A DNA stretch of 64,000 bases from Escherichia coli (GCF_044324875.1 NZ_CP172185.1), one strand, 5' to 3'. Counted from the stretch's first letter, positions 14,348 through 40,625 are shown. The notes: generated from the sequence alone by a model not told the origin. Made by a program: numbers and translations.

Positions 14348-14363
14348 ACTGTTGTTCCTTCTG

Positions 14364-16013: not shown

Positions 16014-16859
<846 letters not shown>

Positions 16860-16941
16860 CTAAACTTTCAGGAGATTTATTATGAATAAACGTATCCTCA
16901 CGATTGCGCCATTCTTCTTACCGATATTCTGACACACATCA

Positions 16942-17868
16942 TTAACTTTCTATTTTTACTCTTTTCTCCACCATAAAATCAATAAAAGCACGAACTTTAG
17001 AGGGCATTCTCACCCGTGATGAAACATATATATAAAATCCAGGAAATGAAACGGCCCAATCCTCAAGAATCGGCTGTAACTTGCCCGCATTGATATGTTC
17101 AGCGATTGCAAAATCCAGATGTTGAATGATACCCGTTCCATTCAGCGCCATTCGTATCATGCTTTCGTCATCATTAGAAATATACTTACCTGAAACCTCT
17201 ATTTCGAACTCTTCATTACCCCCCACAACATTAGAAAACTCCCATGCAGAGAGTGCACCGCTACTTTTATGCCGCAACCGAAGGCAATTATGGTTACTCA
17301 GTTCCTGAGGCGTTTCAGGAATACCGTGTTCTTTTAAATAATCTGGCGATGCCACAGTAACCAGTTTAATAAGCGGAGAAACAGGAACGGCAGTCATATG
17401 CTCATCCAGTCCTTGCTCAAGACGTATGCCCACATCACAGCCGTCCGCAATAATGTTAGATAAACCGTCATCCATAATGAGTTCTATCTTTGTTTTGGGG
17501 TAACGAGTAAGAAACTCGCCAATATGAGGCTCAACAAGCATCCGTGCTGCAACACGGGAGGAATTTATTCTCAACAGGCCTGTAGGTTCAAGTTGGGTAT
17601 CACCAACATCTTTCAAAGCATCATCAATTTGCCCCAAAGCCGACACCAGCACTTCATACAGACGCTGTCCTTCCTCAGTAAGCGACATATTGCGGGTCGT
17701 ACGGTATATCAGCTTGGTGTTAAGACGTTCCTCAAGAGATTTTAAATTCTGGGACAATGCGGCCCGCGTAATACCCATTTCAGAAGCGGCTCTGGAAAAA
17801 CTGCCGGCACGAACAATAAGCGCAAACCAGGCAAGAGAAGGCAAAATTGAAGGCTCTATTTTCATCAT
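16942..17868 (-). CDS. LysR-family transcriptional regulator (start uncertain)
   Basis: N-terminal LysR HTH (FSRAASEMGITRAALSQNLKSLEERL), C-terminal substrate-binding domain; divergent from hydrolase gene. Confidence 0.75.
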   Translation of the reverse strand: MMKIEPSILPSLAWFALIVRAGSFSRAASEMGITRAALSQNLKSLEERLNTKLIYRTTRNMSLTEEGQRLYEVLVSALGQIDDALKDVGDTQLEPTGLLRINSSRVAARMLVEPHIGEFLTRYPKTKIELIMDDGLSNIIADGCDVGIRLEQGLDEHMTAVPVSPLIKLVTVASPDYLKEHGIPETPQELSNHNCLRLRHKSSGALSAWEFSNVVGGNEEFEIEVSGKYISNDDESMIRMALNGTGIIQHLDFAIAEHINAGKLQPILEDWAVSFPGFYIYVSSRVRMPSKVRAFIDFMVEKRVKIES

Positions 17869-18024
17869 TGTAAACCTTAACTTAACACTGTGATAGATAT
17901 TAGACCATTGATGATAACCAATACAAGTCATACTATTACGCCGTTCTCGATATGAACACGAATGCCAGTTGCGGATAATAGAAATGATATTTAAATCTGT
18001 TTAGGCAAATCCCCGGAGCTTGAA

Positions 18025-18945
18025 ATGAAAACTGTTTCGATAAAACATACTTACTGGGATATAGCTGCTGATATCTATTTCCCTGACGATTTTAATAGTG
18101 AAAAAAAGTATCCTGCCATTATCAGCGCCCATCCAATTGGAAGCTGCAAAGAACAGACATCGGGTAGTGTGTATGGTGCCGCCCTGGCAAAAGCTGGCTT
18201 TATCGTCATTGCTTTTGATGCCAGTTTTCAGGGAAGCAGCGGTGGAGAACCGCGTTATCTGGAAGATCCAACAATGCGAGTAAAAGACTTCAGCATTGTC
18301 GTTGATTACCTTACCACCTTACCTTACGTTGATGCCGGGCGTATTGGTGTACTGGGTATTTGTGGTGGAGGTGGATATGCCATTAATGCCGCAATGACAG
18401 AACGTCGAATTAAAGCTATTGGTACTGTCACGGGTGCAAACTACGGGCGTCTTATGCGTGAGGGATTTACAGCGTTTAATCCTATCGGAGCACTCGAAGC
18501 GATGGCGCAACAAAGAACAGACGAAGCTAACGGCGCAAAACTTCGCGTAGATGATTTACTCCCCTCTTCTCCGGATGCAGCTCTTGAAGCGGGATTAACA
18601 GAAATAGACCTTTTTGAAGCCACAGAATATTATCGTTCGCCACGAGGCTGTGCACCTAATGGGGTAAATCGTTCGCTATTCTCACATCAGACTGTTGCCG
18701 TGGGTTGGGATGCATTTCATCTTGCAGAAGTCCTGTTAACTCAACCAATAATGGTTGTGGTGGGCGATAGAGTGGGCGCATTTGGTGCCTACCGTGACGG
18801 CTGCGAAATTATTGGCCGCGCTGCCTCAAAACATAAAGAGCTGGTCGTGGTTGAAGGTTATTCACATTACGACCTGTATGATAAGCCAGAACCTGTGAAA
18901 CAGGCACTCGAAAAATTAATTCCTTTTTATAAAACACATTTGTAA
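18025..18945 (+). CDS. Alpha/beta-hydrolase fold protein, cytoplasmic (306 aa)
   Basis: Nucleophile elbow GICGGGG and C-terminal GYSHYDLYD; paralog of the 38418..39575 product. Confidence 0.65.
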   Translation: MKTVSIKHTYWDIAADIYFPDDFNSEKKYPAIISAHPIGSCKEQTSGSVYGAALAKAGFIVIAFDASFQGSSGGEPRYLEDPTMRVKDFSIVVDYLTTLPYVDAGRIGVLGICGGGGYAINAAMTERRIKAIGTVTGANYGRLMREGFTAFNPIGALEAMAQQRTDEANGAKLRVDDLLPSSPDAALEAGLTEIDLFEATEYYRSPRGCAPNGVNRSLFSHQTVAVGWDAFHLAEVLLTQPIMVVVGDRVGAFGAYRDGCEIIGRAASKHKELVVVEGYSHYDLYDKPEPVKQALEKLIPFYKTHL

Positions 18946-19117
18946 TAATCTTACAGGGAGATTCCTTATCTCCCTGACATTTATCCTTTATTGACTACAC
19001 AACAATAATAAAATTACTCAAAAAGAATTCTATTAAAGGAAAAAAGCATCAAAAAGTAGCAACTCAACTTATTAAGATTATACGCATTAAAATCAGATAA
19101 ACATTTGAGGTATTGTT

Positions 19118-20260
19118 ATGACAAATAAACACCCATCATTGTTTTCTCCTTTTATGCTGACAGAAAAAATAAAGCTACGTAATCGTATCGTTATGGCCCC
19201 TATGACGACCTGGTCAGCGAATCCTGATGGAACCATCTCTGAGCAAGAACTCGAATTTTATAAACGCCGCTCACAAAATGTTGGTTTAGTAATAACAGGA
19301 TGTACCTATGTCACGCCAAGCGGCATTGGGTTTACTCATGAATTTGCCGCGTATGACGACCGTTTCATTAACAGCCTTGAAAAGTTAGCAGCGGCAGCCA
19401 AAAGTGGCGGTGCTCCGGCTATTTTGCAGATTTTCCACGCCGGTAATAAAGCCATCCCGGAGCTTGTACCAAATAACGATGTTATTAGTGCCAGCGCATC
19501 AAGCGTAAAATCTGGTGACTTTATGAAGAGAGTGGTACAAAGCAGGGAAATGACTGAAAACGAAATTCAGGAAACCATTAGAGCATTCGGAGATGTCACA
19601 AAAAGGGCGATTAAAGCAGGTTTTGATGGCATTGAACTTCATGGTGCGCACGGATTCCTTCTACAGAATTTCTTCTCCCCTCTATTTAACCAGCGTAATG
19701 ACCGATGGGGAGGAGATCTCGAAAGACGTATGCGATTCCCGCTGGCCGTATTACAGGAAGTAAAAAATGTAGTCTATGAATATGCGACAAAGCCCTTTGC
19801 CATCGGTTACAGAATATCTCCTGAAGAATCTGCAACAGGGGGGCTGCGGATAGAGGATACTTATAAACTCCTTGATCGGCTCATTGCATCCGGTATTTCG
19901 TATATACATACCTCGCTGGTCAGTATTAACGATAGCTACCCTGTTGAGTCGCCAAATGGCCCCCGAACTATTGAATTGATTTTAAATCATATTGCAGGCA
20001 GAGTGCCGGTAATCGCTGCAGGTAAAATACGCACACCGTCTCAGGCTCAAGAAGCAATTTCCACTGGCCTGCCACTTGTTGCGATCGGTAAAGGGCTGGT
20101 GATAAATCCAGAATGGGTGACTTTAGCTGAATCAGGTAGAAGCCATGAAATTCAAACAACCCTTAATCCACAACTTGTTCCTGAATTAACCATTCCGGAT
20201 AAACTATGGGATCAAATTCAGGCATCGAAAGGAACTGGCTGGTTTCCGTTAATGGATTAA
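19118..20260 (+). CDS. Old Yellow Enzyme-family NAD(P)H:flavin oxidoreductase (380 aa)
   Basis: TIM-barrel OYE motifs (RIVMAPMTT, GFDGIELHGAHGFLL, IAAGKI). Confidence 0.75.
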   Translation: MTNKHPSLFSPFMLTEKIKLRNRIVMAPMTTWSANPDGTISEQELEFYKRRSQNVGLVITGCTYVTPSGIGFTHEFAAYDDRFINSLEKLAAAAKSGGAPAILQIFHAGNKAIPELVPNNDVISASASSVKSGDFMKRVVQSREMTENEIQETIRAFGDVTKRAIKAGFDGIELHGAHGFLLQNFFSPLFNQRNDRWGGDLERRMRFPLAVLQEVKNVVYEYATKPFAIGYRISPEESATGGLRIEDTYKLLDRLIASGISYIHTSLVSINDSYPVESPNGPRTIELILNHIAGRVPVIAAGKIRTPSQAQEAISTGLPLVAIGKGLVINPEWVTLAESGRSHEIQTTLNPQLVPELTIPDKLWDQIQASKGTGWFPLMD

Positions 20261-20731
20261 ATATCTATTACTCTCCCGAGTGTAAAACTATCAAACCAAT
20301 GAGTAACCGATACAGCCTCGCAAATTCTTTCAGATAATTAACCCGTCACTGCGGCACGTTCTCTCATAAGGCGTGCCTGCTGTGTAATCCAGTATGGATC
20401 CAGCATAGTTGACGGCTTAATAGACTCAATTCCTTTCCCAGGTTACCAACAACGATATCTTGTATAACACCCCAGAAGATACGACATTATGATGAGATGA
20501 GGTATGCTCCTCAGCGCCAATCAACGCCAGGGCTGGGCCAGTTTTGAGATCAGACTCATTCCCGGACTGACTTCAGGCGACATATATCAATGACGTTGGG
20601 GCAATAAAAGATAGCCGATGTAATACATCTATTCAAATTTGTGATACATGTCAAAAAATTGGTTGACCAAACTCGTTATTTATATAAGGGCACTTACGAA
20701 GTGCACTCTTTTTTAAAGCGAGGAAGTACCA

Positions 20732-20833
20732 ATGAAAGAGAATAAAGTACAACAAATCAGTCATAAACTGATTAATATCGTTGTTTTTGTCGCAATTGTA
20801 GAATACGCCTATTTATTTCTCCATTTCTATTAA
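20732..20833 (+). CDS. ykgR: Small hydrophobic protein YkgR (33 aa)
   Basis: MKENKVQQISHKLINIVVFVAIVEYAYLFLHFY; GAGG 7 nt upstream of ATG. Confidence 0.6.
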   Translation: MKENKVQQISHKLINIVVFVAIVEYAYLFLHFY

Positions 20834-21162
20834 TAACGGCAATAAACTGTTCACTTCAGTGATATTAAAAAATATGCATCCTCTCCCTTTTTTGTAAGTA
20901 ATTATTATATCCGTGGGAGAGGAATACACGCTGTCCGGCAATCAATCAAACTGCGATAAATCATCGGCCAGTAAAATGGAGATAGCCTCCATTCTCGAAA
21001 AATTCATACTCTCAGCGAAACCATCACTCATCAAGGCGTTTATGGGAGCGTCGCCAATGGCTGCTAACAATGCCAGACTTCCCCGTTGCCGAAATTCCAC
21101 ATACCACAAATGGTCACAGGGATTGGGTGTTGAAATGATCCGGATGAGCATGTATCTTTATG

Positions 21163-21180
21163 GTTATGTTATAACATAAC
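21163..21180. promoter_or_regulatory. Zur box upstream of ykgM-ykgO
   Basis: Perfect palindrome gttatgttataacataac 9 bp before the rpmE2 start. Confidence 0.7.
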
Positions 21181-21188
21181 AGGTAAAA

Positions 21189-21455
21189 ATGATGAAGCCC
21201 AATATCCATCCTGAGTATCGTACTGTGGTGTTCCACGACACCAGTGTTGATGAGTACTTTAAAATCGGCTCGACTATCAAAACAGACCGTGAGATTGAGC
21301 TGGATGGCGTAACGTATCCGTACGTGACAATTGATGTCTCTTCTAAATCGCACCCGTTCTATACAGGGAAGCTGAGAACAGTGGCATCAGAAGGAAATGT
21401 TGCACGATTCACCCAACGTTTTGGTCGTTTTGTTAGCACGAAAAAGGGGGCATGA
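21189..21455 (+). CDS. ykgM: Zinc-independent ribosomal protein L31 paralog (type B)
   Basis: [19 protein letters not shown]...; lacks CxxC zinc ribbon. Confidence 0.85.
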
Positions 21456-21595
21456 TGAAAGTCCTTAACTCTCTGCGTACCGCAAAAGAACGCCATCCAG
21501 ACTGTCAGATTGTGAAGCGAAAAGGACGGCTATATGTGATTTGTAAATCTAATCCACGTTTTAAGGCCGTTCAGGGTCGTAAGAAAAAACGTTGA
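21455..21595 (+). CDS. ykgO: Zinc-independent ribosomal protein L36 paralog (46 aa)
   Basis: [46 protein letters not shown]; ATG overlaps ykgM stop (ATGA); below track size cut-off. Confidence 0.85.
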
Positions 21596-22172
21596 TTCAA
21601 AATTCGACGAATTAACGATATTTGTCTGATTAATAATCAGACCGGATTAATGTTGGTGTATTTATTACACCAGCATTAATTTTCCTGAGGATGTATCTTC
21701 CTGTTCATTTAAGGTCAACTGCCTGACGTTTCTCTCCGAATATTCCATTATATTAATGTTGACTTGTTGACCAGGTGCGCCCTGTATGCTGGCATCAACT
21801 CTCTTTTAGACTGAACACGCCACTCAGTTTCCTCCCTTTGCGACGCAGCCTGCATTTACACTCAAACGGTTAAGATGATAAATGTGGTAAATCTGTTGGT
21901 ACTGACATAAAAACGTTTACGCCACAGGAACGGCCTGATCCACCGGTAACCCCATCGCCGACGTTCGAGTGCCAGTTAGAGTAACGCGCACAGATGACTG
22001 AATGCAGTGCCCTGGCAAAGAGGCCATCGTTCCTGTGACAACTGGCAGTCTTCGTTTAACTTCACTTAATTTGGCTCTTAGGGGGCTTACCGGACAGATG
22101 ACGTACTTACACCTGTTTAATTTTTCATCACTTATTGGGATGAACACCCATAACCATGGTAATGACTCCAAC

Positions 22173-22676
22173 TTATTGATAGTGTTTTATGTTCAGATAA
22201 TGCCCGATGACTTTGTCATGCAGCTCCACCGATTTTGAGAACGACAGCGACTTCCGTCCCAGCCGTGCCAGGTGCTGCCTCAGATTCAGGTTATGCCGCT
22301 CAATTCGCTGCGTATATCGCTTGCTGATTACGTGCAGCTTTCCCTTCAGGCGGGATTCATACAGTGGCCAGCCATCCGTCATCCATATCACCACGTCAAA
22401 GGGTGACAGCAGGCTCATAAGACGCCCCAGCGTCGCCATAGTGCGTTCACCGAATACGTGCGCAACAACCGTCTTCCGGAGCCTGTCATACGCGTAAAAC
22501 AGCCAGCGCTGGCGCGATTTAGCCCCGACATAGCCCCACTGTTCGTCCATTTCCGCGCAGACGATGACGTCACTGCCCGGCTGTATGCGCGAGGTTACCG
22601 ACTGCGGCCTGAGTTTTTTAAGTGACGTAAAATCGTGTTGAGGCCAACGCCCATAATGCGGGCAGTTGCCCGGCAT
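22173..22676 (-). CDS. insB: IS1 transposase InsB frame (made as InsAB by -1 frameshift)
   Basis: 167-aa ORF overlapping insA 3' end. Confidence 0.85.
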
Positions 22677-22870
22677 CCAACGCCATTCATGGCCATATCA
22701 ATGATTTTCTGGTGCGTACCGGGTTGAGAAGCGGTGTAAGTGAACTGCAGTTGCCATGTTTTACGGCAGTGAGAGCAGAGATAGCGCTGATGTCCGGCGG
22801 TGCTTTTGCCGTTACGCACCACCCCGTCAGTAGCTGAACAGGAGGGACAGCTGATAGAAACAGAAGCCAC
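22595..22870 (-). CDS. insA: IS1 protein InsA
   Basis: 91-aa ORF with zinc-finger CPSC...CSHC and HTH. Confidence 0.9.
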
Positions 22871-23396
22871 TGGAGCACCTCAAAAACACCATCATACACT
22901 AAATCAGTAAGTTGGCAGCATCACCCATGAACACCCATAACCATTTTGTGCGGCATGTTAATCCATTAAAACACCTTACTGATTGGCAAATCATCTTTAA
23001 TTATGACTCATGATAGTTTTATATTCTATTTATTATCATTTAAACTTGTTTTTTTACTAGTCCATTACACAACACATTAAGACTATTCCTAACACCTCAG
23101 GGCAAAGTTCCTGGCTAATATAAAATGCAAGTAAGAATTGAACGTTATATTGCCAATAACCTTATGAAACTGAATGTCTTTTTCTTCTTATCAAAAAAGC
23201 AATATTTTCATTTTTTGTAAATATTGACTTAACCATGGAATTCCTTTTCTGTTCACATATTGACACTCATCAGGAAAAAAACATAAATTTAAACCTAATC
23301 GAAATAATTAAAACTTAATCTCGTTTAACCTATATTGATATGTGCTACGTATCTTATTTACTTCCGATTTACTAAAGAAACTGAATGTACCTGTAA

Positions 23397-24008
<612 letters not shown>

Positions 24009-24082
24009 ACTCCAGGCAAGTTAGTTTTAAAAAATGACTCACAGGGACATCACGTCCTCAATTCAACTCGGGAAGAAAAGCA

Positions 24083-24670
24083 ATGAAAAAAAAGGTTCTG
24101 GCAATAGCTCTGGTAACGGTGTTTACCGGCATGGGTGTGGCGCAGGCTGCTGACGTAACAGCTCAGGCTGTAGCGACCTGGTCAGCAACAGCCAAAAAAG
24201 ACACCACCAGTAAGCTGGTTGTGACGCCACTCGGTAGCCTGGCGTTCCAGTATGCCGAAGGCATTAAAGGTTTTAACTCACAGAAAGGTCTATTTGACGT
24301 AGCTATCGAGGGTGACTCAACGGCTACCGCCTTTAAACTGACCTCACGTCTTATCACCAACACCTTAACCCAGTTGGATACCTCAGGTTCCACACTGAAT
24401 GTGGGCGTGGATTATAACGGCGCGGCAGTCGAAAAAACTGGCGATACCGTGATGATCGATACCGCCAACGGCGTACTGGGCGGCAACCTTAGCCCACTGG
24501 CTAACGGTTACAATGCCAGCAATCGTACCACCGCACAGGATGGTTTCACTTTCTCCATCATCAGCGGCACCACCAATGGTACCACCGCAGTAACCGATTA
24601 CAGCACTCTACCGGAAGGCATCTGGAGCGGCGACGTTAGCGTACAGTTCGACGCGACCTGGACCAGTTAA
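24083..24670 (+). CDS. ecpA: E. coli common pilus major subunit
   Basis: Signal peptide, pilin-like T/S-rich sequence, first gene after ecpR. Confidence 0.85.
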
Positions 24671-24685
24671 TCTCTCTGATGTACC

Positions 24686-24711
24686 AGCAGGGGTAGCCCC
24701 CCTGCTTTATT
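24686..24711 (+). terminator. Hairpin between ecpA and ecpB (partial terminator/attenuator)
   Basis: agcaggggtagcccccctgct followed by ttatt. Confidence 0.55.
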
Positions 24712-24727
24712 CCTGGACGGAATTGTT

Positions 24728-25396
24728 ATGAAAAAGCACCTTCTGCCTCTCGCTCTGCTGTTTTCCGGAATATCTCCGGCCCAGGCGCTGGATGTCGGCG
24801 ATATATCATCGTTTATGAACAGTGACAGCAGCACGCTGAGCAAAACGATCAAAAACAGTACCGACAGTGGTCGCCTTATCAATATCCGTCTCGAACGGCT
24901 CTCTTCACCGCTTGACGACGGGCAGGTTATCTCAATGGACAAGCCGGATGAGTTGCTACTCACTCCCGCCAGCTTGCTGCTACCCGCCCAAGCCAGCGAA
25001 GTGATCCGCTTCTTCTATAAGGGACCCGCAGATGAAAAAGAGCGCTACTACCGCATTGTCTGGTTTGATCAGGCCCTCAGTGATGCGCAGCGCGATAATG
25101 CCAACCGTAGCGCTGTGGCCACTGCTTCCGCCCGCATCGGCACCATTCTGGTCGTCGCCCCTCGCCAGGCGAACTACCACTTTCAGTACGCCAACGGCTC
25201 CCTGACAAATACAGGAAATGCGACGCTGCGGATCCTCGCCTACGGCCCCTGCCTGAAAGCCGCCAATGGTAAGGAGTGTAAAGAGAATTACTACCTGATG
25301 CCGGGCAAGTCGCGTCGTTTTACCCGCGTGGACACGGCGGATAACAAAGGACGGGTTGCACTTTGGCAGGGTGATAAGTTCATTCCCGTGAAATAG
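24728..25396 (+). CDS. ecpB: Pilus chaperone EcpB
   Basis: Signal peptide; operon position. Confidence 0.8.
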
Positions 25397-25421
25397 ATAG
25401 CTGTGCAGATGGATAACGACA

Positions 25422-27947
25422 ATGCCTTTACGACGGTTCTCCCCAGGACTGAAAGCCCAGTTTGCCTTCGGCATGGTCTTTTTGTTCGTTCAGCCCGATG
25501 CCAGCGCTGCTGACATAAGTGCGCAGCAAATAGGTGGGGTGATTATTCCGCAGGCCTTCAGTCAGGCGCTCCAGGACGGCATGAGCGTCCCGCTTTATAT
25601 TCATCTCGCCGGTAGCCAGGGTCGCCAGGACGATCAGCGAATCGGAAGCGCTTTTATCTGGCTGGATGATGGACAGCTACGCATCCGGAAAATACAGCTG
25701 GAAGAGAGTGAAGATAACGCCAGTGTCAGCGAACAAACTCGACAGCAGCTGATGGCTCTGGCGAACGCCCCGTTCAATGAGGCCCTTACCATCCCCCTGA
25801 CTGACAACGCGCAGCTGGATCTCAGCTTGCGCCAACTGCTGCTGCAGCTAGTGGTCAAGCGCGAAGCGCTGGGCACCGTACTACGCTCACGTAGCGAAGA
25901 CATCGGGCAGTCCAGTGTTAACACCCTCAGCAGTAATCTGAGCTATAACTTCGGCGTCTATAACAACCAGTTGCGTAACGGCGGGAGCAACACATCCAGC
26001 TATCTGTCGCTGAATAACGTTACTGCACTGCGCGAACATCACGTGGTGCTCGACGGCTCGCTGTACGGGATCGGTAGCGGTCAACAGGACAGTGAATTAT
26101 ATAAAGCGATGTATGAACGCGATTTTGCCGGTCACCGATTTGCCGGTGGAATGCTCGACACCTGGAACTTGCAGTCCTTAGGGCCGATGACCGCCATTTC
26201 AGCAGGGAAGATTTACGGCCTTTCCTGGGGAAACCAGGCCAGCTCCACCATCTTCGACAGCAGCCAGTCAGCCACGCCAGTGATCGCCTTTTTACCGGCG
26301 GCGGGCGAAGTACATCTCACCCGTGATGGGCGGCTATTAAGCGTTCAGAACTTCACCATGGGCAATCATGAAGTGGATACCCGGGGTCTACCGTACGGTA
26401 TTTACGATGTGGAAGTTGAGGTGATCGTTAACGGTCGCGTGATCAGCAAACGTACTCAACGGGTCAATAAGCTGTTTAGCCGGGGGCGCGGCGTCGGTGC
26501 ACCACTGGCGTGGCAGATATGGGGCGGTAGCTTTCATATGGATCGCTGGTCGGAAAACGGGAAAAAGACGCGACCAGCTAAAGAGAGTTGGCTGGCAGGT
26601 GCCTCGACCTCCGGCTCACTGAGTACGCTTAGCTGGGCGGCAACGGGATATGGATACGATAATCAGGCGGTGGGTGAAACCCGTCTGACGCTGCCGCTTG
26701 GGGGGGCGATCAACGTTAACCTGCAAAACATGCTGGCCAGTGACAGCTCATGGAGCAACATCGCCAGCATCAGCGCCACTCTACCGGGAGGCTTCAGTTC
26801 GCTGTGGGTTAACCAGGAAAAAACCCGCATTGGCAATCAATTGCGACGTAGCGATGCCGACAACCGTGCAATCGGCGGCACACTCAACCTGAACTCACTG
26901 TGGTCGAAGCTGGGTACGTTCAGCATCAGCTACAATGATGACCGCCGCTACAACAGCCATTATTACACGGCAGATTACTATCAAAGTGTCTACAGCGGTA
27001 CCTTTGGTTCGCTTGGCCTGCGGGCCGGTATTCAGCGCTATAACAACGGCGACAGCAGCGCCAATACAGGGAAATATATCGCTCTCGATCTCTCGCTACC
27101 ACTGGGCAACTGGTTTAGCGCAGGGATGACCCATCAAAACGGCTACACCATGGCAAACCTGTCAGCACGCAAACAGTTTGATGAAGGAACCATTCGCACT
27201 GTTGGTGCCAATCTGTCACGAGCCATCTCCGGCGATACCGGTGATGACAAAACCCTCAGCGGTGGGGCGTATGCACAGTTCGACGCTCGTTACGCCAGCG
27301 GAACGCTGAACGTTAATAGCGCGGCGGACGGCTACATCAATACCAATTTGACCGCCAACGGCAGCGTCGGCTGGCAGGGTAAAAACATCGCTGCCAGCGG
27401 GCGGACCGATGGCAACGCTGGGGTGATATTCGACACTGGCCTGGAGAACGATGGTCAGATCAGCGCCAAAATCAACGGGCGGATTTTCACGCTTAACGGC
27501 AAGCGTAACTATCTCCCGCTCTCTCCCTATGGAAGATATGAGGTGGAGTTGCAGAACAGCAAAAACTCACTCGACAGTTACGATATCGTCAGCGGTCGCA
27601 AAAGCCATCTGACTCTCTATCCAGGCAATGTCGCTGTCATTGAGCCAGAGGTGAAGCAGATGGTTACCGTCTCCGGTCGTATCCGTGCGGAAGACGGCAC
27701 ACTGCTGGCTAACGCACGGATTAACAACCATATCGGCCGAACCCGAACCGATGAAAACGGCGAGTTTGTCATGGACGTAGATAAGAAATACCCCACTATC
27801 GATTTTCGCTACAGTGGCAATAAAACCTGCGAAGTGGCACTGGAACTCAACCAGGCGCGCGGTGCCGTCTGGGTCGGTGATGTGGTCTGCAGCGGCCTCT
27901 CATCGTGGGCGGCGGTGACGCAGACAGGAGAAGAGAATGAGAGTTAA
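25422..27947 (+). CDS. ecpC: Outer-membrane usher EcpC (841 aa)
   Basis: Large beta-rich ORF with signal peptide. Confidence 0.85.
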
Positions 27948-30901: not shown

Positions 30902-31149
30902 ATATGCAATAATTAATTGCACTGCCCCGCCAGCTATAATCGCGGGGCTTCGTTTTTCAGGGATAACAAAACCCGAAACTTCTTCCATCTGCCAGCAACA
31001 ATGCCTCTTCCTCTATAGTGTTCTCCGGATCTACAGCATCCTGAAGTAGCGCGATGTACTCATTGGCTATCTGCATCAGAAAGTTAAAAACAATGTTTTT
31101 AACCTATAAAAATGGCGCTGTATTTGCGCCATTTTTATCATTCAATGCA

Positions 31150-31764
31150 TTATCTGTTTGAGCCTAAAGGGATCTCAGGGTCTGGCTCATGAGTAATTCT
31201 GTTTCGTAAATCTCTGCGAATAATTTCAATGGACCAGAACCAGACTAAATGTCCAAAAATTTCAGAAACATTCTCATACCACGGGAGATCAAACAGAGGT
31301 GGCGTCAGTCCCATGAGAGGGAATGAAATCATATGAACAAAAAGTTGGGCTAAAGCACCTGCCAGTAAGCCCTGCCAGAGTTTAATTTTTGGAAATACTT
31401 CAGCGACCACACAATAACCGACAGCAAACACTATCGAAAAGATAATGTGCGTAACACCAACCCAGTTAAAGACATGCCCGGCAAAGGTATAAACAGCCGC
31501 ATTGGGATCTGTCAGCCCCAACCAGTCTCGAAGAAAAATATACGGAGGATTGAGAAAATTACGGGAGCAATCAATTTGCCCAGCAGCCCTGATTAATGAT
31601 TCCGGGCCACACGCTGCATTAAACATATCCACCGGGCTACGTGGCGGCAATGGAACTTCAGCCCCCCACTTCACAAATGCGGAAACAACGCCAGCAATCA
31701 GCCCAATGAATGCAGCAAGACCATAACGTCTGCGGTTCGGTGGAGTTTGTTCAAATATATTCAT
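31150..31764 (-). CDS. yagU: DUF1440 inner-membrane protein YagU
   Basis: 204-aa hydrophobic ORF. Confidence 0.8.
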
Positions 31765-32169
31765 ATCTACCCTGCTTGTACCATTATGTTATACACCTCT
31801 TCAGGAGTATTCATAAAACAAGGCAAATGTAAAGAACTGTATTGTTTTGTATAATGCAATGGTGACTAATCGCCAATTAATATAAGCACCATCATTTCTC
31901 CCTATTTTTATGTTAGAAGTGACAAAGATTTGTAGGGTGATGTAGAGCTGACAATCACAGGTTTCCTTATCGGTTTTTGCATCGCACAACTAAAGCAATA
32001 AACGAGCTCCCGTCATCGGCGAATATGAATTAATTAGCCGGGCTCATAGCTGCATTCGCGTTTTAAGAATAATCCTCCTGCTCTCACCGACTATGCTTAA
32101 CGTTTAAAAAAGCATCAGCACTCTCGCAACGCTCTCTTATTTTCCCCTTTAGAATACCGGAGGCCTGGT

Positions 32170-32859
32170 ATGAGCAACCAAGGCGAATACCCCGAAGATA
32201 ATCGGGTTGGGAAGCACGAGCCGCACGATTTTAGTTTGACCCGTCGCGATCTGATTAAAGTCAGCGCCGCAACGGCGGCGACCGCCGTGGTTTATCCTCA
32301 TTCTACGCTTGCAGCAAGCGTTCCGGCAGCTACACCCGCGCCAGAGATAATGCCCCTGACACTTAAGGTGAACGGCAAAACCGAGCAGTTGGACGTTGAT
32401 ACCCGAACCACGCTACTGGACGCTTTGCGTGAAAATCTGCTTCTGATCGGTACCAAGAAAGGTTGCGATCACGGGCAGTGCGGAGCCTGTACCGTGCTGG
32501 TCAATGGTCGCAGGCTTAATGCCTGCCTGACGCTTGCAGTCATGCATCAGGGGGCCGAGCTCACCACCATTGAAGGCCTGGGTTCACCAGAGAATCTTCA
32601 CCCCATGCAGGCGGCCTTTATCAAGCATGATGGCTTCCAGTGCGGCTACTGCACCTCCGGGCAAATTTGCTCATCAGTAGCGGTGCTAAAAGAGATTCAG
32701 GACGGCATTCCCAGTCACGTCACGGTCGATTTGGTTTCCCCTCCAGAAAGAACTGCCGATGAGATCCGTGAACGTATGAGCGGCAACATCTGTCGCTGTG
32801 GTGCATACGCTAACATCCTTGCCGCCATTGAAGATGCTGCGGGGGAGATAAAATCATGA
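32170..32859 (+). CDS. paoA: Periplasmic aldehyde oxidoreductase, 2Fe-2S subunit
   Basis: Tat motif TRRDLIK; 2Fe-2S cysteine motifs CDHGQCGAC and CGYC...CRC. Confidence 0.9.
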
Positions 32860-33812
32860 AGGCGTTTACCTATGAACGAGTGAACACCCCGGCCGAGGCG
32901 GCACTTAGCGCTCAGCGCGTACCCGGCGCAAAATTTATCGCTGGCGGGACCAATCTGCTGGACCTGATGAAGCTGGAAATTGAAACGCCAACCCACCTTA
33001 TCGATGTGAACGGGCTCGGGCTCGATAAGATTGAAGTGACCGACGCGGGTGGGCTGCGCATCGGCGCACTGGTACGGAACACCGACCTGGCAGCTCACGA
33101 GCGCGTGCGTCGTGATTACGCGGTACTCTCCCGCGCCCTGCTCGCTGGCGCGTCTGGTCAGTTACGTAATCAGGCAACCACCGCAGGTAATCTGCTCCAG
33201 CGCACGCGCTGCCCCTATTTTTACGACACCAATCAGCCCTGCAATAAGCGCCTGCCCGGGAGCGGCTGCGCGGCACTTGAAGGCTTTAGCCGTCAGCACG
33301 CGGTGGTAGGCGTAAGCGAAGCCTGCATTGCCACCCATCCGAGCGATATGGCGGTCGCAATGCGGTTGCTGGATGCGGTGGTGGAAACCATCACGCCGGA
33401 GGGAAAGACTCGCAGTATCACACTGGCTGATTTTTATCACCCTCCGGGAAAAACGCCGCACATTGAAACCGCCCTGCTTCCCGGTGAGCTTATCGTTGCG
33501 GTGACGTTACCTCCGCCGCTCGGCGGAAAACATATTTACCGTAAGGTGCGCGATCGCGCCTCCTACGCCTTTGCCCTGGTATCGGTCGCAGCGATTATTC
33601 AGCCTAACGGCAGCGGGCGCGTCGCGCTGGGCGGAGTAGCACATAAGCCCTGGCGCATTGAGGCTGCGGATGCTCAGCTATCCCAGGGGGCGCAGGCCGT
33701 GTATGACGCGCTGTTCGCCAGCGCCCATCCCACCACTGAAAACACCTTTAAACTCCTGTTGGCGAAGCGAACGCTTGCCTCCGTACTGGCTGAAGCGAGG
33801 GCACAGGCATGA
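32856..33812 (+). CDS. paoB: Aldehyde oxidoreductase FAD-binding subunit
   Basis: CO-dehydrogenase-flavoprotein-like ([11 protein letters not shown]). Confidence 0.9.
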
Positions 33813-36007
33813 AATTTGATAAACCCGCAGGGGAAAACCCGATTGATCAGCTGAAGGTTGTCGGTCGTCCCCATGACCGCATCGACGGACCGCTGAAAAC
33901 TACCGGCACGGCACGCTACGCCTACGAATGGCATGAAGAAGCCCCCAACGCCGCCTATGGTTATATCGTCGGTTCCGCCATTGCCAAAGGATGCCTCACC
34001 GCCCTCGATACGGACGCCGCGCAAAAAGCGCCGGGCGTACTGGCTGTCATTACCGCCAGTAACGCCGGGGCACTCGGCAAAGGCGACAAAAACACCGCCA
34101 GGCTGTTAGGCGGCCCCACTATTGAGCACTATCATCAGGCCATTGCGCTGGTAGTGGCCGAGACCTTCGAACAGGCACGAGCGGCGGCCTCGCTGGTGCA
34201 GGCGCACTATCGCCGTAATAAAGGAGCTTACTCCCTGGCGGACGAGAAACAGGCCGTCAGTCAGCCGCCGGAAGACACGCCCGATAAAAATGTTGGTGAC
34301 TTTGACGGGGCTTTCACCTCCGCTGCGGTGAAGATTGATGCTACCTACACGACCCCGGACCAGAGCCATATGGCGATGGAACCGCATGCCTCGATGGCCG
34401 TCTGGGATGGAAATAAGCTTACCCTCTGGACCTCAAATCAGATGATTGACTGGTGCCGCACCGATCTGGCAAAAACGCTGAAAGTGCCCGTGGAGAATGT
34501 GCGTATTATCTCCCCGTATATCGGTGGAGGGTTTGGCGGCAAGCTGTTCCTGAGAAGCGATGCGCTGCTGGCGGCCCTCGCCGCCCGTGCGGTGAAACGT
34601 CCGGTTAAAGTGATGCTCCCCCGCCCCACTATTCCCAATAACACAACGCACCGCCCCGCCACCCTTCAGCACCTGCGTATCGGTGCCGACCAGAGCGGGA
34701 AAATCACTGCTATCTCACATGAAAGCTGGTCCGGAAACCTGCCCGGCGGCACGCCGGAAACGGCGGTACAGCAAAGCGAATTTCTTTACGCAGGGGCGAA
34801 TCGTCATACAGGCCTGCGGCTCGCCACGCTTGATTTGCCGGAAGGGAACGCCATGCGTGCGCCCGGCGAAGCCCCCGGTCTGATGGCGCTCGAAATCGCG
34901 ATCGACGAACTGGCGGAAAAAGCGGGCATCGATCCCGTCGAGTTTCGCATCCTGAATGACACTCAGGTTGACCCCGCCGACCCGACGCGCCGCTTCTCTC
35001 GCCGTCAGCTTATCGAGTGCTTGCGCACCGGAGCGGATAAATTTGGCTGGAAGCAGCGCAACGCCACACCCGGACAGGTACGCGACGGGGAGTGGCTAGT
35101 CGGCCACGGTGTTGCGGCGGGCTTTCGCAATAATCTGCTGGAAAAATCGGGTGCGCGGGTTCACCTAGAACAAAACGGCACCGTTACCGTGGAAACGGAC
35201 ATGACCGATATTGGCACTGGCAGCTACACCATTCTGGCCCAGACGGCAGCGGAAATGCTTGGCGTACCGCTGGAGCAGGTTGCGGTTCACCTCGGCGATT
35301 CCAGTTTCCCGGTTTCTGCGGGTTCTGGTGGACAATGGGGCGCGAATACCTCCACCTCCGGCGTTTACGCCGCCTGTGTGAAGCTTCGCGAAATGATTGC
35401 CTCGGCAGTCGGGTTTGATCCTGAGCAGTCGCAGTTTGCCGACGGCAAGATTACCAACGGTACCCGAAGCGCCATGCTACATGAGGCCACCGCAGGCGGC
35501 AGACTGACAGTGGAAGAGAGCATTGAATTCGGAACACTGAGCAAGGAGTACCAGCAATCGACCTTTGCCGGGCATTTTGTGGAGGTCGGAGTGCATAGCG
35601 CGACGGGAGAAGTTTGGGTCCGGCGTATGCTCGCCGTGTGCGCAGCGGGGCGCATTCTGAATCCGAAAACTGCACGCAGCCAGGTCATTGGCGCGATGAC
35701 TATGGGCATGGGCGCGGCACTGATGGAGGAGCTGGTGGTAGATGACCGTTTGGGCTACTTCGTTAATCACGATATGGCGGGGTATGAGGTGCCGGTTCAT
35801 GCGGATATCCCAAAACAGGAGGTGATTTTCCTGGATGATACCGACCCCATATCCTCCCCGATGAAGGCCAAAGGTGTCGGTGAGCTGGGCCTGTGCGGCG
35901 TGAGCGCGGCTATCGCCAACGCGGTGTATAACGCCACCGGTATTCGGGTACGGGATTATCCCATCACTCTGGATAAGCTGCTCGATAAGCTGCCGGATGT
36001 GGTTTAA
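33809..36007 (+). CDS. paoC: Aldehyde oxidoreductase molybdopterin-binding subunit (732 aa)
   Basis: Xanthine-dehydrogenase-family molybdopterin domain; overlaps paoB stop. Confidence 0.9.
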
Positions 36008-36016
36008 GGAGGAACA

Positions 36017-36970
36017 ATGTCATACCCACTTTTTGACAAAGACGAGCACTGGCATAAGCCAGAGCAGGCGTTTCTCACCGATGACCACCGGACCATTCTG
36101 CGCTTCGCCGTAGAGGCGCTAATGTCCGGTAAAGGAGCGGTGCTGGTGACGCTGGTGGAAATACGCGGCGGCGCGGCGCGCCCGCTCGGGGCTCAGATGG
36201 TGGTGCGCGAAGATGGTCGTTACTGCGGTTTTGTCTCTGGCGGCTGCGTGGAGGCCGCTGCCGCTTTTGAAGCGCTGGAGATGATGGGCTCAGGCCGCGA
36301 TCGCGAAATTCGCTATGGCGAAGGTTCGCCGTGGTTTGACATCGTTCTGCCCTGCGGCGGTGGGATCACGCTGACGCTCCATAAACTACGCTCGGCACAG
36401 CCTCTGCTCGCCGTGCTGAACCGCCTGGAACAGAGAAAACCGGCGGGTCTGCGCTACGATCCGCAAGCACAATCGCTGGTGTGCCTGCCCACGCAAACCC
36501 GGACAGGCTGGAATCTCAATGGCTTTGAGGTGGGGTTCAGGCCATGCGTCAGGCTGATGATTTACGGACGTTCTCTTGAGGCGCAGGCAACCGCGAGTCT
36601 TGCAGCAGCCACAGGCTATGACAGCCATATCTTCGATCTTTTTCCGGCCTCAGCCAGCGCTCAGATCGATACCGATACGGCGGTCATTTTGCTGTGCCAT
36701 GATCTCAACCGGGAGCTGCCAGTGTTGCAGGCCGCGCGAGAAGCAAAACCCTTTTATCTCGGCGCATTGGGCAGCTATCGAACCCACACTTTACGTCTGC
36801 AAAAGCTCCACGAGCTGGGATGGTCCAGGGAGGAGACAGCGCAAATCCGGGCACCCGTCGGGATATTCCCCAAAACCCGGGATGCGCATACTCTGGCACT
36901 CTCCGTGCTGGCAGAAGTCGCCGCTGTACGTCTCCGTCAGGAGGATTCATGCCTGCCCCCATCGTCCTGA
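36017..36970 (+). CDS. paoD: XdhC-family molybdenum cofactor insertion chaperone
   Basis: XdhC/CoxI family; last gene of pao operon. Confidence 0.85.
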   Translation: MSYPLFDKDEHWHKPEQAFLTDDHRTILRFAVEALMSGKGAVLVTLVEIRGGAARPLGAQMVVREDGRYCGFVSGGCVEAAAAFEALEMMGSGRDREIRYGEGSPWFDIVLPCGGGITLTLHKLRSAQPLLAVLNRLEQRKPAGLRYDPQAQSLVCLPTQTRTGWNLNGFEVGFRPCVRLMIYGRSLEAQATASLAAATGYDSHIFDLFPASASAQIDTDTAVILLCHDLNRELPVLQAAREAKPFYLGALGSYRTHTLRLQKLHELGWSREETAQIRAPVGIFPKTRDAHTLALSVLAEVAAVRLRQEDSCLPPSS

Positions 36971-37056
36971 TCCTCGCGGCGGGGCGTGGGGAGCGCTTCC
37001 TCACCTCCGGGGGAAATACCCATAAATTAAGAGAAAAATCTGCAGTAGCCGTTTAA
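36949..37056 (+). pseudogene. 35-codon remnant of a MobA/MocA-like molybdopterin nucleotidyltransferase gene
   Basis: MPAPIVLILAAGRGERF (NTP-transferase LAAGxGxR motif) then unrelated tail and stop; ATG overlaps paoD 3' end; hairpin terminator at about 37085..37110. Confidence 0.45.
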
Positions 37057-37148
37057 GAAAATCACCTAAATCGTTTAAAAGAGCGCCCAACCCATAGTGG
37101 GCGCTTATCGCCTTGTGTAACTTATTCAGCAACGCGCGCCTCGCCGGA

Positions 37149-38342
37149 CTAAAGCGCACCGGCCTTCTGGCGTGCGGTAACAAAGGTCAGTACGCCAGCG
37201 CAAAGGAGCAGCACGCTACTCATAGCAAACGTGCTCTGCCAGCCAAGGCGGTCAAACACAATGCCTCCTGCCGTTGATCCAAGGGCGATGGCGAGCCGAA
37301 TCACCGCGACCATGAGCCCGCCTCCGGCTTCGGCGTTGTCAGGCAACGTACGCGCAATCCATGTCCACCATCCGGTTGGCGCGGCGGTGGCCAGCATGCC
37401 CCAGAGTCCTAACAGCAGCGAGACCGTCCAGACGTGATGCCCGGTAAGCATCAGACCGATGGCAATGACGGCCATCAGTCCGGGTATGGCCATCAGCGTG
37501 GGGTAGAATTTTCTGTTGAGAAATGCCGAAACAACCAGCGTGCCAATAAAACCGGCCACGCCGATAATCAGCAAAATCGACGACAAGCCTAAGGAATTAA
37601 CCCGTGTCACCGACTCCAGAAACGGGCGCACATAGGTGAATAGCGCAAACTGCCCCATGAAAAACAGGCCACAAGCTATCATGCCGACCACAACCATGCG
37701 GCGGCTAAATAAGCGGAATACCGCGCCACATGAAGTGTGGCTTTTATTCGCATCCATGCTTGGCAGGCTGATGCACTGCCAGATAAAGGCGACAACCGCG
37801 ATGGGCACCAGGCACAAGAAAGCGCCTCGCCATCCGACCGTAGCCCCCAGATAGCTTCCCAGCGGTGCGGCCACGACCGTCGCCAGCGCATTACCGGCGT
37901 TGAAAATTGCCAGCGCACGCGTGACCTGATGCTGCGGCACCAGACGAATCGCCGTTGCCGCTGACATCGACCAGAATCCGCCAATAGCCACACCAATCAT
38001 CGCACGACCGACCATATACATCAGATAACTGGAAGCCAGCGCAATAATAAGCCCCGATACGGCCATCAGAACCGTCATCCCCAGCAGCAGGAACTTACGA
38101 TTCATCTTTCCAGCTAGCGTTGAAAGCGTCAGGCTGGTCAGAACCGCCAGCGCGCCGGAGATAGCAATCCCCTGCCCTGCCAGCCCCTCCGTCACGCCTA
38201 AATCGCGGGTAATCGGCGTGAGCAGGCTGACGGGCATGAATTCAGAAGCAATCAGCACAAACACGCACAGGGTCATGGCAAAAATACCGCCCCAGTATGC
38301 GCGCTGATGATGAGGTGATAGTGTTTGGCTTAGTGTCGACAT
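37149..38342 (-). CDS. MFS-family transporter (397 aa)
   Basis: About 12 hydrophobic segments. Confidence 0.75.
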   Translation of the reverse strand: MSTLSQTLSPHHQRAYWGGIFAMTLCVFVLIASEFMPVSLLTPITRDLGVTEGLAGQGIAISGALAVLTSLTLSTLAGKMNRKFLLLGMTVLMAVSGLIIALASSYLMYMVGRAMIGVAIGGFWSMSAATAIRLVPQHQVTRALAIFNAGNALATVVAAPLGSYLGATVGWRGAFLCLVPIAVVAFIWQCISLPSMDANKSHTSCGAVFRLFSRRMVVVGMIACGLFFMGQFALFTYVRPFLESVTRVNSLGLSSILLIIGVAGFIGTLVVSAFLNRKFYPTLMAIPGLMAVIAIGLMLTGHHVWTVSLLLGLWGMLATAAPTGWWTWIARTLPDNAEAGGGLMVAVIRLAIALGSTAGGIVFDRLGWQSTFAMSSVLLLCAGVLTFVTARQKAGAL

Positions 38343-38417
38343 AGTGAAATTTCACAAAGATCAGGATAAAAGCCACCAGCCTATGGCCGGTGGCTTTGCA
38401 TCAATTCAGGAGAGGTT

Positions 38418-39575
38418 TTATTTCAGTTTGGTCTGGAAAAATTGTTCGAACTTCGCGAAAGGTATTTTTCCGGCCACGTTATCGTACAGGTCCACGTGAT
38501 TTGCCCCTGGTACCACCACCAGCTCTTTGTCTTTACTGCCAACCGCCTTGTAAGCATCTTCAGCAAAATAGCGTGAATGCGCTTTCTCACCGGTCACAAT
38601 CAGCGTCGGGATGGTGATTTCACTGGCGTAGCTCAACAGCGGCATATTCATAAATGACAGCGGCATCGTTGCCGTCCACGCCCCGGTAGAGTTAACGGAA
38701 CGTTCGTGGAAGCCGCGCGGCATGCGATAGTAGTCAAAGAACTCTTTCAGTACCGGATGAGGATTTGCCGGCAGCGTTTCTGGCAGAATGCGCTCGCCCG
38801 CACTGACCTTGCCGTTGCTGTCGACATTAATATCATGACCACCGTGAGCGAACGTTCCGCTCTGCGCATCCTTCCAGCGCTGTTCATTCAGATATTGCAG
38901 AACAGCACGACGGTCGGCGGTAGAATAACGGTCTTTGCCATCCCCCACACCATGCCCCATCGCCCGGCTCATGTCATACATCACGCTGGTAGCTACCGCT
39001 TTAACGCGGGTATCCATCGCCACGTCGTTCAGCGCCATGCCGCCCCAGCCACAAATACCGAGCAGCCCGATACGGTTGCGATCTACCTCTTTTTGCAGCC
39101 CTAAGAAATCCACCGCCGCGCTGAAATCTTCAGTGTTGATATCCGGTGAGGCGACGTTTCGCGGATAGCCGCCGCTTTCCCCGGTGTAAGAAGGATCGAA
39201 CGCCAGGGTAACAAACCCTCGTTCCGCCAGCGTCTGCGCATACAGGCCGCTGGATTGCTCTTTCACCGCGCCAAATGGCCCACTGACCGCAATCGCCGCC
39301 AGCTTGCGATCGCCACGGTCTTTAGGCAGGTAAAGATCGCCCACTAAGGTGATGCCATATCGGTTCGGGAACGAGACTTTACGGTGATCGACTTTCTGGC
39401 TCTCGGCGAACGTTTTATCCCATTTATCTGTCATGGACACAGGGGCATTAGGATTGGTTGAATCAGCATAACTCATTGTCGTGACTCCACTTAATGATGC
39501 GAAAAGCAGCATGGTCGGCATCGCGGTTTTTAGCGTGCGGGTGAAGGCTTTCATAAAAATCCCCATAAAAAACAA
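38418..39575 (-). CDS. Secreted alpha/beta-hydrolase fold protein (385 aa; start uncertain)
   Basis: Signal peptide; GICGWGG nucleophile elbow; paralog of 18025..18945. Confidence 0.65.
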   Translation of the reverse strand: MFFMGIFMKAFTRTLKTAMPTMLLFASLSGVTTMSYADSTNPNAPVSMTDKWDKTFAESQKVDHRKVSFPNRYGITLVGDLYLPKDRGDRKLAAIAVSGPFGAVKEQSSGLYAQTLAERGFVTLAFDPSYTGESGGYPRNVASPDINTEDFSAAVDFLGLQKEVDRNRIGLLGICGWGGMALNDVAMDTRVKAVATSVMYDMSRAMGHGVGDGKDRYSTADRRAVLQYLNEQRWKDAQSGTFAHGGHDINVDSNGKVSAGERILPETLPANPHPVLKEFFDYYRMPRGFHERSVNSTGAWTATMPLSFMNMPLLSYASEITIPTLIVTGEKAHSRYFAEDAYKAVGSKDKELVVVPGANHVDLYDNVAGKIPFAKFEQFFQTKLK

Positions 39576-39740
39576 CAGAGAGATACAGGTTTCCGACGGA
39601 CAACGCTGCGGTGCTTTACTTTGATGGGGTCATTATAGTGAGCAGAATTAGTGCTGATTAGTGGGCGATTAATGCTAAGATTAATACCATATTGTTATAA
39701 ATTAATGCGGAGATTGCCGGCATGAAGGGGGGATGTTTCA

Positions 39741-40625
39741 ATGGCGAAAAGGGAGAACTACAACGAGCTGTACCTGTTTATGCAGGTGGTGCGGGAAGGC
39801 AGCTTTACCGCAGCGGCTCAGCGGCTGGGTCTTGCTCAGTCAGGAGTCAGCCGTTCTGTTCGCGAGCTTGAAGAAAGGCTGGGCGTCCAGCTGCTAGTGC
39901 GCACCACGCGTAAACTGTCGCTGACACAAGCAGGCGAGCAGCTCTACCAGAAGACGGCATCTGGATTTGAAATGTTAGATCTTGGGCTTGCCACGCTGGC
40001 GCACTATCGAGAGACGCCCTCCGGCACGGTGCGTATCAATGCCAGCCAGCACGCGATTGATAAATGCCTGCTGCCAAAGCTGGCGGTATTTAAACAGAGA
40101 TATCCTGATATCCGGCTTGAACTGATAAATGAGAGCCGGTTCGTCGATATCATCGAGGAAAGATTCGATGCAGGTGTCCGCCTGGGGCCTGAAGTCGGCC
40201 AGGGTATGGTCGCGGTACGCATCACGCCCGATATGGAGATGGCAATTGTGGGGACTCCGGAACATTTTCGTCGCTATGGTTTTCCGCAAACCCCGGCGGA
40301 TTTAAAGGCGCATCCCTGTATCGCCTATCAGTTTGCCGACGGCAGCGTATACCAGTGGGAACTCAATCAGGATGATAAAAAAATCACTCATCGCCCTGAA
40401 GGGCAATGGGCCCTATCCGACAGCTATATGGAAGCAGAAGCCGCCCGGCTGGGCCTCGGATTGGCCTATGTTCCTGTTGAACTGGTCGCGGATGATTTAG
40501 AACACGGTAAGCTTATCAGGGTGTTGCAGCGTTACAGCCTGCGAATGGAGGGATTGTTTCTCTATTACCCTCATCGCAACGTCTCCCCCGCCCTGCGGAT
40601 GGTCATTGATACATTGAAAATCTGA
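39741..40625 (+). CDS. LysR-family transcriptional regulator
   Basis: LysR HTH (FTAAAQRLGLAQSGVSRSVRELEERL); close paralog of the IS-split LysR gene. Confidence 0.8.
   Translation: MAKRENYNELYLFMQVVREGSFTAAAQRLGLAQSGVSRSVRELEERLGVQLLVRTTRKLSLTQAGEQLYQKTASGFEMLDLGLATLAHYRETPSGTVRINASQHAIDKCLLPKLAVFKQRYPDIRLELINESRFVDIIEERFDAGVRLGPEVGQGMVAVRITPDMEMAIVGTPEHFRRYGFPQTPADLKAHPCIAYQFADGSVYQWELNQDDKKITHRPEGQWALSDSYMEAEAARLGLGLAYVPVELVADDLEHGKLIRVLQRYSLRMEGLFLYYPHRNVSPALRMVIDTLKI

Follow-up and report, generated by a model that had tools for sequence, protein, structure and literature searches.

Two gene pairs, each a LysR-type regulator gene lying divergent to an alpha/beta hydrolase gene, occur in the variable stretch between eaeH and thrW on an Escherichia coli chromosome, and the question they raise is whether one is a copy of the other. 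They were studied in a 64-kb stretch of that chromosome (hereafter the window; all coordinates are positions in it, and the order of features is given in its orientation). An initial annotation, which also noted ykgR-like sequence in both regions, read the pairs as paralogous modules left by an old segmental duplication and subsequent differential decay. The analysis presented here corrects this attractive reading: with a probability of about 0.85, the two look-alike regulator-enzyme pairs, 20 kb apart, belong to two independent three-gene LysR-regulated cassettes from two subfamilies, acquired separately and not duplicates of one another, and the ykgR relic is unrelated to them.

Cassette 1 (approximately 16942-20260) is AT-rich and comprises LysR1 (16942-17868, minus strand), Hyd1 (18025-18945, plus strand; a predicted cytoplasmic hydrolase of 306 amino acids) and an NADH:flavin oxidoreductase of the OYE type (19118-20260, plus strand; Oxidored_FMN, E=1.3e-77). 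LysR1 is RefSeq WP_001328123.1 in the matching genome H1; its longest open reading frame extends to 17931, and the RefSeq start gives 308 amino acids. Cassette 2 (37149-40625) is GC-rich and comprises a major facilitator (MFS) transporter (37149-38342, minus strand; MFS_1, E=3.8e-37), the predicted exported hydrolase Hyd2 (38418-39554, minus strand) and LysR2 (39741-40625, plus strand). The top NCBIfam model for the transporter is NepI, at 288 bits under a cut-off of 584. The divergent arrangement that the initial annotation had described is present in both cassettes, with HTH_1 and LysR_substrate domains in LysR1 (3.8e-19 and 3.1e-29) and in LysR2 (1.4e-23 and 4.7e-35). The putative control regions between the divergent genes are short, at 156 bp and 36% GC in cassette 1 (17869-18024) and 186 bp in cassette 2 (39555-39740), and the same layout recurs in orthologous cassettes.

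The hydrolases are homologous. Pairwise protein alignment gave 32% identity over 323 amino acids (E=4e-44), and the two motifs first noticed in the reading frames at 18025-18945 and 38418-39575 are indeed common to both: a GICGxGG nucleophile elbow, reading GICGGGG in Hyd1 and GICGWGG in Hyd2, and the C-terminal segment KELVVV.G..H.DLYD, which is KELVVVEGYSHYDLYD in Hyd1 and KELVVVPGANHVDLYD in Hyd2. The Cys of the elbow (pattern G-[IV]-C-x-x-G-G) takes the place of the Ser in the G-x-S-x-G-G of the solved hydrolases 9pjb, 8b4u and 7d78 when these are aligned, and is found in 103 of 104 aligned family members, Hyd1 and Hyd2 included. His281 of H-x-D-L-Y-D and Y285 are each kept in 102 of the 104 and D286 in 99, while K42, E43 and Q44 of an N-terminal KEQ motif are each kept in at least 99. 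Both proteins match two solved structures over their full length: E. coli YcjY (5XB6) at E=4.3e-67 for Hyd1 and E=1.3e-43 for Hyd2, and Pseudomonas aeruginosa PA2218 (2HDW) at E=5.9e-44 and E=8e-125, respectively. These alignments assign both hydrolases to the YcjY/PA2218 family, in which Cys appears to replace the usual Ser nucleophile. The two are genuine paralogues of great age that have their Cys/His catalytic motifs in common. Conserved residues are now defined for this structurally solved Cys-hydrolase family, and Hyd1 is a reasonable target for substrate discovery.

Common ancestry does not make them each other's closest kin. Hyd1 is 41% identical to YcjY, its best solved relative, against 32% to Hyd2, whose own best solved relative is PA2218. 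A scan of species-representative genomes found relatives of Hyd1 at 60-82% identity in at least five phyla (Burkholderia, Stenotrophomonas, Rhizobium, Paracoccus, Gordonia, Myxococcus, Chryseobacterium and Streptomyces), and a protein search found orthologues of Hyd2 that are 84-96% identical across Enterobacterales. The scan was ranked by similarity to Hyd1, so relatives of Hyd2 are under-sampled in it; the protein search and two context look-ups offset this. The alignments and phylogenies that the initial annotation had suggested for the hydrolases and regulators place Hyd1 and Hyd2 in separate clades: in bootstrapped neighbour-joining trees the Hyd1 clade (n=30) has 97% support, the YcjY clade (n=17) 100%, and the Hyd2 clade (n=18), which includes PA2218, 100%. 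Several phyla are represented in each of the Hyd1 and Hyd2 clades. The hydrolases represent two subfamilies that, as far as these trees tell, split long before the enterobacteria.

The regulators do not form a pair either. LysR1 and LysR2 share 29% identity, the lowest value for any pair among LysR1, LysR2, PgrR (also named YcjZ) and LysR3, the third LysR gene of the initial annotation. The same level, 28.7%, was obtained between LysR1 and an unrelated OXA-48-linked LysR, which argues for a likeness at the level of the superfamily only. Only the N-terminal part of LysR3 is present in the window (16011-16817, minus strand; HTH_1 2.6e-23, and a truncated LysR_substrate domain, 5.5e-19); its intact form of 297 amino acids, in genome H1, is closest to PgrR (47%), and LysR2, LysR3 and PgrR are mutually 41-47% identical. 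In the LysR tree, LysR1 belongs to a clade with 100% bootstrap support, the other members of which, in other genera, lie next to and divergent from Hyd1/YcjY-type operons, and unrelated flanking LysR proteins fall on LysR1's side of the split. PgrR and LysR3 group together (96.5%) within a 19-member group that also holds LysR2 (85%). The claim that the modules are paralogous consequently stands for the hydrolases and fails for LysR1 and LysR2, which sit in different clades.

A duplication of whole modules could in principle be far older than E. coli: a LysR-hydrolase pair may have duplicated once, deep in bacterial history, and both descendants may later have been acquired by E. coli. This is consistent with the divergent LysR gene beside 15 of 26 Hyd1/YcjY-type operons and some Hyd2-type genes, with the shared best score of LysR1 and LysR2 against the YafC model, and with LysR3-like regulators beside Hyd2-type genes in Bosea and Microvirga. 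We nevertheless consider it improbable, since the hydrolase and regulator trees are incongruent. Hyd1 is nearest to YcjY, but YcjY's regulator PgrR is nearest to LysR2 and LysR3 and not to LysR1; the same type of hydrolase is paired with either clade of regulator, Hyd1/YcjY operons having a LysR1-clade partner seven times and a PgrR-clade partner eight times. Outside those operons a divergent LysR is rare, with 2 cases among 14 Hyd2-clade genes and a single case among 31 other family members. Mixed partners and rare pairing indicate that the family did not have a LysR partner ancestrally, and that LysR genes were probably recruited more than once and not inherited as part of a module, and the case shows how often such regulators come to stand beside enzymes.

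Independent acquisition is also supported by composition and by the occurrence of each cassette elsewhere. The GC content at third codon positions (GC3) is 0.375 for LysR1, 0.339 for Hyd1 and 0.370 for the OYE gene, and 0.656 for the MFS gene, 0.602 for Hyd2 and 0.593 for LysR2, a gap of about 0.25. Cassette 2 is intact in Klebsiella michiganensis (LysR 86%, Hyd2 89% and MFS 75% identity) and in Dickeya chrysanthemi (79%, 85% and 48%), in neighbourhoods unrelated to the window and without ykgR-like DNA, and an MFS gene accompanies the Hyd2 orthologues of Klebsiella, Dickeya, Corallococcus, Bosea and Microvirga. In Escherichia albertii the stretch shared with the window is 16956-20275 only, that is, cassette 1, between unrelated flanks. 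Its Hyd1 gene (L005:6001-6921) is 90.9% identical to that of the window at the nucleotide level and 99% at the amino acid level; 84 nucleotide differences with so little change in the protein imply strong purifying selection on Hyd1. The spacer is 91.7% identical, and the LysR1 and OYE proteins on either side are each about 90% identical, next to which the constraint on Hyd1 is unusually strong.

The ykgR-like sequence has a history of its own. As the initial annotation had noted, both regions contain it: ykgR is intact, with 33 codons, at approximately 20732-20833 (plus strand; translation, and PGAP annotation in genome H1), and a 3' fragment lies at 40837-40905, where PGAP independently annotates a partial YkgR in matching genomes. 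The fragment is the beginning of a longer decayed copy (repeat B, 40837-41105, plus strand), which aligns to the intact locus (repeat A, plus strand) in two blocks. Codons 12-33 of ykgR and 49 bp downstream (20765-20882) are 90% identical in nucleotides to 40837-40953; after a 676-bp deletion, which accounts for ykgM and the greater part of ykgO, some 12 final codons of ykgO and about 115 bp downstream, overlapping the 3' end of ykgL (21559-21711), are 75% identical to 40953-41105. Repeat B is a direct repeat, now decayed, of a ykgR-ykgM-ykgO segment that measured at least 950 bp. The module genes gave only chance-level DNA matches to one another (blastn, word size 7). An unselected relic at 75-90% nucleotide identity cannot be as old as genes with no DNA similarity and proteins about 30% identical; it records a separate and far younger event than the split of the hydrolases.

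The model of the initial annotation, in which a LysR-hydrolase-ykgR block was duplicated within the Escherichia lineage and the copies then diverged and decayed differently, would account for the LysR genes, homologous hydrolases and ykgR-like DNA of both regions, which are separated by only some 20 kb of one variable stretch. It is very improbable in view of what has been set out above. Both hydrolases and both LysR proteins are far closer to proteins of other genera or phyla than to their counterparts in the supposed copy; the GC3 gap is about 0.25; cassettes found elsewhere have no ykgR beside them; and a single event would leave the selected genes better conserved than the non-coding relic, the reverse of what is found. 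The gene content and orientation also disagree. The order is LysR (leftward), hydrolase, OYE and ykgR (all rightward) in the first region, and MFS and hydrolase (leftward), LysR and the ykgR fragment (rightward) in the second, so that the module is inverted relative to ykgR and the third gene is of another kind. The claim of an old segmental duplication is accordingly abandoned.

How the relic itself arose can be addressed separately. Repeats A and B bracket a 20-kb block of ykgMO, ecp, pao and cassette 2, and the relic may mark the junction left when a unit of approximately 20 kb (20765-40836) was long ago duplicated in tandem, with most of the second copy deleted afterwards; the modules would not have been created thereby. 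Direct orientation, the abrupt start of repeat B inside ykgR 211 bp past the LysR2 stop codon, the in-register ykgO 3' codons and downstream sequence, which imply that repeat B once held ykgM-ykgO, and the presence of repeat B in genomes with cassette 2 all fit this proposal. Set against it are the absence of homology beyond 41105 by tblastx (the 92-amino-acid open reading frame there has no similarity to YkgL), the absence of any larger remnant from the genomes inspected, and the need for three events, compared with two for the insertion of a copied fragment of about 1 kb. We lean modestly towards the junction over the copied fragment, and hold it as a tentative proposal at somewhat less than even odds; if it is true, the relic would tell when the ykgMO-ecp-pao block came together. 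The relic region (40626-41300) is present at 80% coverage or more in 611 of 5426 complete E. coli genomes. This non-coding segment is 90.4% identical between E. coli strains (compared with L084:6001-6696), within a surrounding 7.7 kb at 96.5%.

Separate acquisition remains the preferred explanation for the cassettes, and several points weigh against it. The trees are distance-based, comprise 104 hydrolase and 37 LysR sequences, and draw on a scan biased towards Hyd1 relatives. YafC is the top NCBIfam model for both LysR1 and LysR2 (192 bits each, below cut-off), so that a distant shared subgroup ancestry is possible. No convincing LysR box was seen in either spacer, T-N11-A dyads being weak (5 of 7 pairs; only one in the cassette 1 spacer), and sigma-70 promoter-like matches in the spacers do not exceed the shuffled expectation. 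The canonical acid position is not conserved across the family: Hyd1-clade proteins have Asp there, Hyd2-clade proteins Glu and YcjY-clade proteins Ser. Finally, the nearest named model for both hydrolases, the UilS-family quorum-quenching N-acyl-homoserine lactonase (NF047920), scores 75 bits for Hyd1 and 64 bits for Hyd2 against a cut-off of 400 and aligns only with the N-terminal 130-160 residues or so, so neither is a member.

Both cassettes are accessory, and the initial annotation was right to speak of two accessory regions. At 80% coverage or more, module 1 is present in 2105 and module 2 in 912 of the 5426 genomes. The cassettes would have entered the eaeH-thrW interval separately, later to be deleted from many E. 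coli lineages. K-12 lacks window positions 11292-20168, an 8.9-kb deletion that leaves the last 92 bp or so of the OYE gene as ykgP. At the other cassette K-12 lacks MFS, Hyd2, LysR2, the ykgR fragment, the hypothetical gene and the SDR gene, up to and including the N-terminus of a fourth LysR. YagP, which K-12 keeps (L004:5382-5792), is the C-terminal 113 residues, at 97% identity, of this LysR4 (L084:7969-8868), which is divergent to the SDR gene in strain UTME-4. In the window itself, an IS21-family element interrupts LysR3, and of the SDR gene only a truncated form is present. Differential decay is therefore found across strains, in the K-12 deletions and the ykgP and yagP stubs, and not as the aftermath of one duplication.

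Three minor points concern these deletions. The ykgP stub (window 20169-20260; L004:21717-21806) is more widespread than the cassette, at least this much being present in about 5048 of the 5426 genomes. The K-12 deletion at cassette 2 runs from just after paoD into the LysR4 gene. We also considered yagP as a remnant of LysR2 and rejected this, having found no DNA match and only 28% protein identity.

The closest known system to cassette 1 is E. coli YcjY with its regulator PgrR, which shares the G-I-C-x-G elbow, the H-x-D-L-Y-D tail and a divergent LysR gene. There are also differences: Hyd1 lies in its own clade, and in many genera a Hyd1-clade gene is the second of two, in tandem after a YcjY-type gene; LysR1 falls outside the PgrR clade; ymjC/mpaA stand downstream of ycjY, in place of an OYE reductase; and the canonical acid position holds Ser in YcjY and Asp in Hyd1. 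PgrR is reported to bind the spacer between ycjY and ycjZ and to regulate ycjY-ymjDC-mpaA (PMC5934670), and overexpression of YcjY causes filamentation (PMC3614548), an effect that does not point to a substrate. By analogy with PgrR and ycjY, each LysR of the window would bind the shared divergent promoter region and turn on its hydrolase operon in response to a small-molecule ligand. Five repeats in the cassette 2 spacer (39640-39715), of the form ATTA(G/A)T(G/A) or similar and reading attagtg, attagtg, attaatg, attaata and attaatg, are candidate half-sites for LysR2.

For Hyd2, the closest known protein is PA2218, the subject of structural-genomics entry 2HDW. Over 342 aligned residues, PA2218 and Hyd2 have in common GICGWGGMALN, WDKTF, KEL..VPGA.HVDLYD and an N-terminal extension. 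In P. aeruginosa, PA2219 (opdE) is an MFS-like membrane protein and PA2220 a LysR regulator. A more distant comparison is with dienelactone hydrolase (DLH, PF01738), the classic alpha/beta hydrolase with a Cys-His-Asp triad, which has the same fold and a Cys at the nucleophile elbow. Its profile matches the N-terminal half of Hyd1 (residues 28-131, 25 bits against a cut-off of 21, covering only profile positions 12-123 of 217) and does not match Hyd2 at E<=0.001; the cap and the C-terminal motifs are specific to the YcjY/PA2218 family, and its acid residue is variable. The resemblance appears to be one of chemistry and not of membership. Pfam and NCBIfam profiles otherwise gave only sub-threshold or generic names, and a search of the literature on YcjY, PgrR, PA2218, 5XB6/2HDW and ykgR found no biochemical function.

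The two enzymes would work in different compartments. The initial annotation had assigned a signal peptide to Hyd2 and none to Hyd1, and the proteins agree with this: Hyd2 has a Sec-type leader, MKAFTRTLKTAMPTMLLFASLSGVTTMSYA, followed by DS, and Hyd1 has no leader. Most Hyd2-clade relatives have Sec or Tat (twin-arginine) leaders N-terminal to the conserved WDKTF motif, and database orthologues are nearly all 378 amino acids long, which favours a start at 39554. The resulting 378-residue form begins MKAFTRTLK and is the probable Hyd2 protein, in preference both to the reading frame that reaches a TTG codon at 39575 and to the RefSeq model of 352 residues, which begins MSYADS and cuts off the leader. 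A by-product of this analysis is thus the probable start of Hyd2 together with its export signal, both missing from the RefSeq model. Hyd1, as a predicted cytoplasmic thiol hydrolase, may cleave an ester, lactone or amide bond, and the OYE ene-reductase may act on an activated C=C bond of the Hyd1 substrate or product. Hyd2 could carry out the same kind of hydrolysis in the periplasm, and the MFS protein could transport the substrate or product through the inner membrane. NAD(P)H-binding proteins, OYE, SDR, AKR, FMN reductases and carboxymuconolactone-decarboxylase-family proteins are recurrent neighbours of the family, which suggests that small compounds of the lactone, ester or enone type are metabolised or detoxified.

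Adjacent hydrolases of different subfamilies are found in many genera. YcjY-type and Hyd1-type genes form tandems in Proteobacteria, Bacteroidota and Streptomyces (loci L010, L012, L015, L016, L019, L021-L024, L029, L030 and L053), and Hyd1-like and Hyd2-like genes do so in metagenome-assembled genomes of Gastranaerophilales (L040, L046 and L051). Their recurrence hints at a paired or sequential function. In K-12, ymjD (21 amino acids, L003:6869-6934) matches the N-terminal end of the Hyd1-type protein encoded after ycjY in Pseudocitrobacter (12 identities in 18 residues, E=5e-6), and ymjC (L003:6681-6863) looks like an N-terminal stub of the NAD(P)H-binding protein type found after Hyd1-clade genes at 10-11 loci. 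From these two stubs, the K-12 ycjY operon seems to be an eroded operon of YcjY-type, Hyd1-type and NAD-binding genes. Origins can accordingly be proposed for three K-12 pseudogenes or stubs: ykgP as the 3' end of the OYE gene, yagP as the C-terminus of LysR4, and ymjD as the N-terminus of a lost Hyd1-type gene. A bolder view, which we think unlikely to hold as a whole, is that the Cys-hydrolases are obligate cross-subfamily pairs of which E. coli keeps scattered or eroded halves (ycjY with the ymjD stub, Hyd1 and Hyd2) and, separately, that the ykgR-ykgO relic is the junction of an ancient tandem duplication of about 20 kb.

The remainder of the window is laid out as follows. It starts with rclC, ykgA and eaeH, followed by two aldo/keto reductase genes (11306-12157 and 12184-13173), LysR3 and cassette 1. 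The element within LysR3 (approximately 13481-16136; istA 14364-16010, istB 13592-14590) has 99.7% identical copies in many E. coli genomes. After the OYE gene come ykgR, ykgM/ykgO, ykgL, ecpRABCDE, ykgJ, yagU and paoABCD, and then cassette 2; 3' of LysR2 lie the ykgR fragment, the 92-amino-acid open reading frame, the truncated SDR gene, an integrase fragment and thrW. The eaeH locus (6487-10740, minus strand) is a single open reading frame of 1417 amino acids and the gene is apparently intact, whereas K-12 eaeH is a pseudogene interrupted by IS3. A REP/BIME-like tandem array of a 101-bp unit, with 3.2 copies matching at 92%, lies together with dispersed partial copies at 58039-58362, 58955-59038 and 61629-61745.

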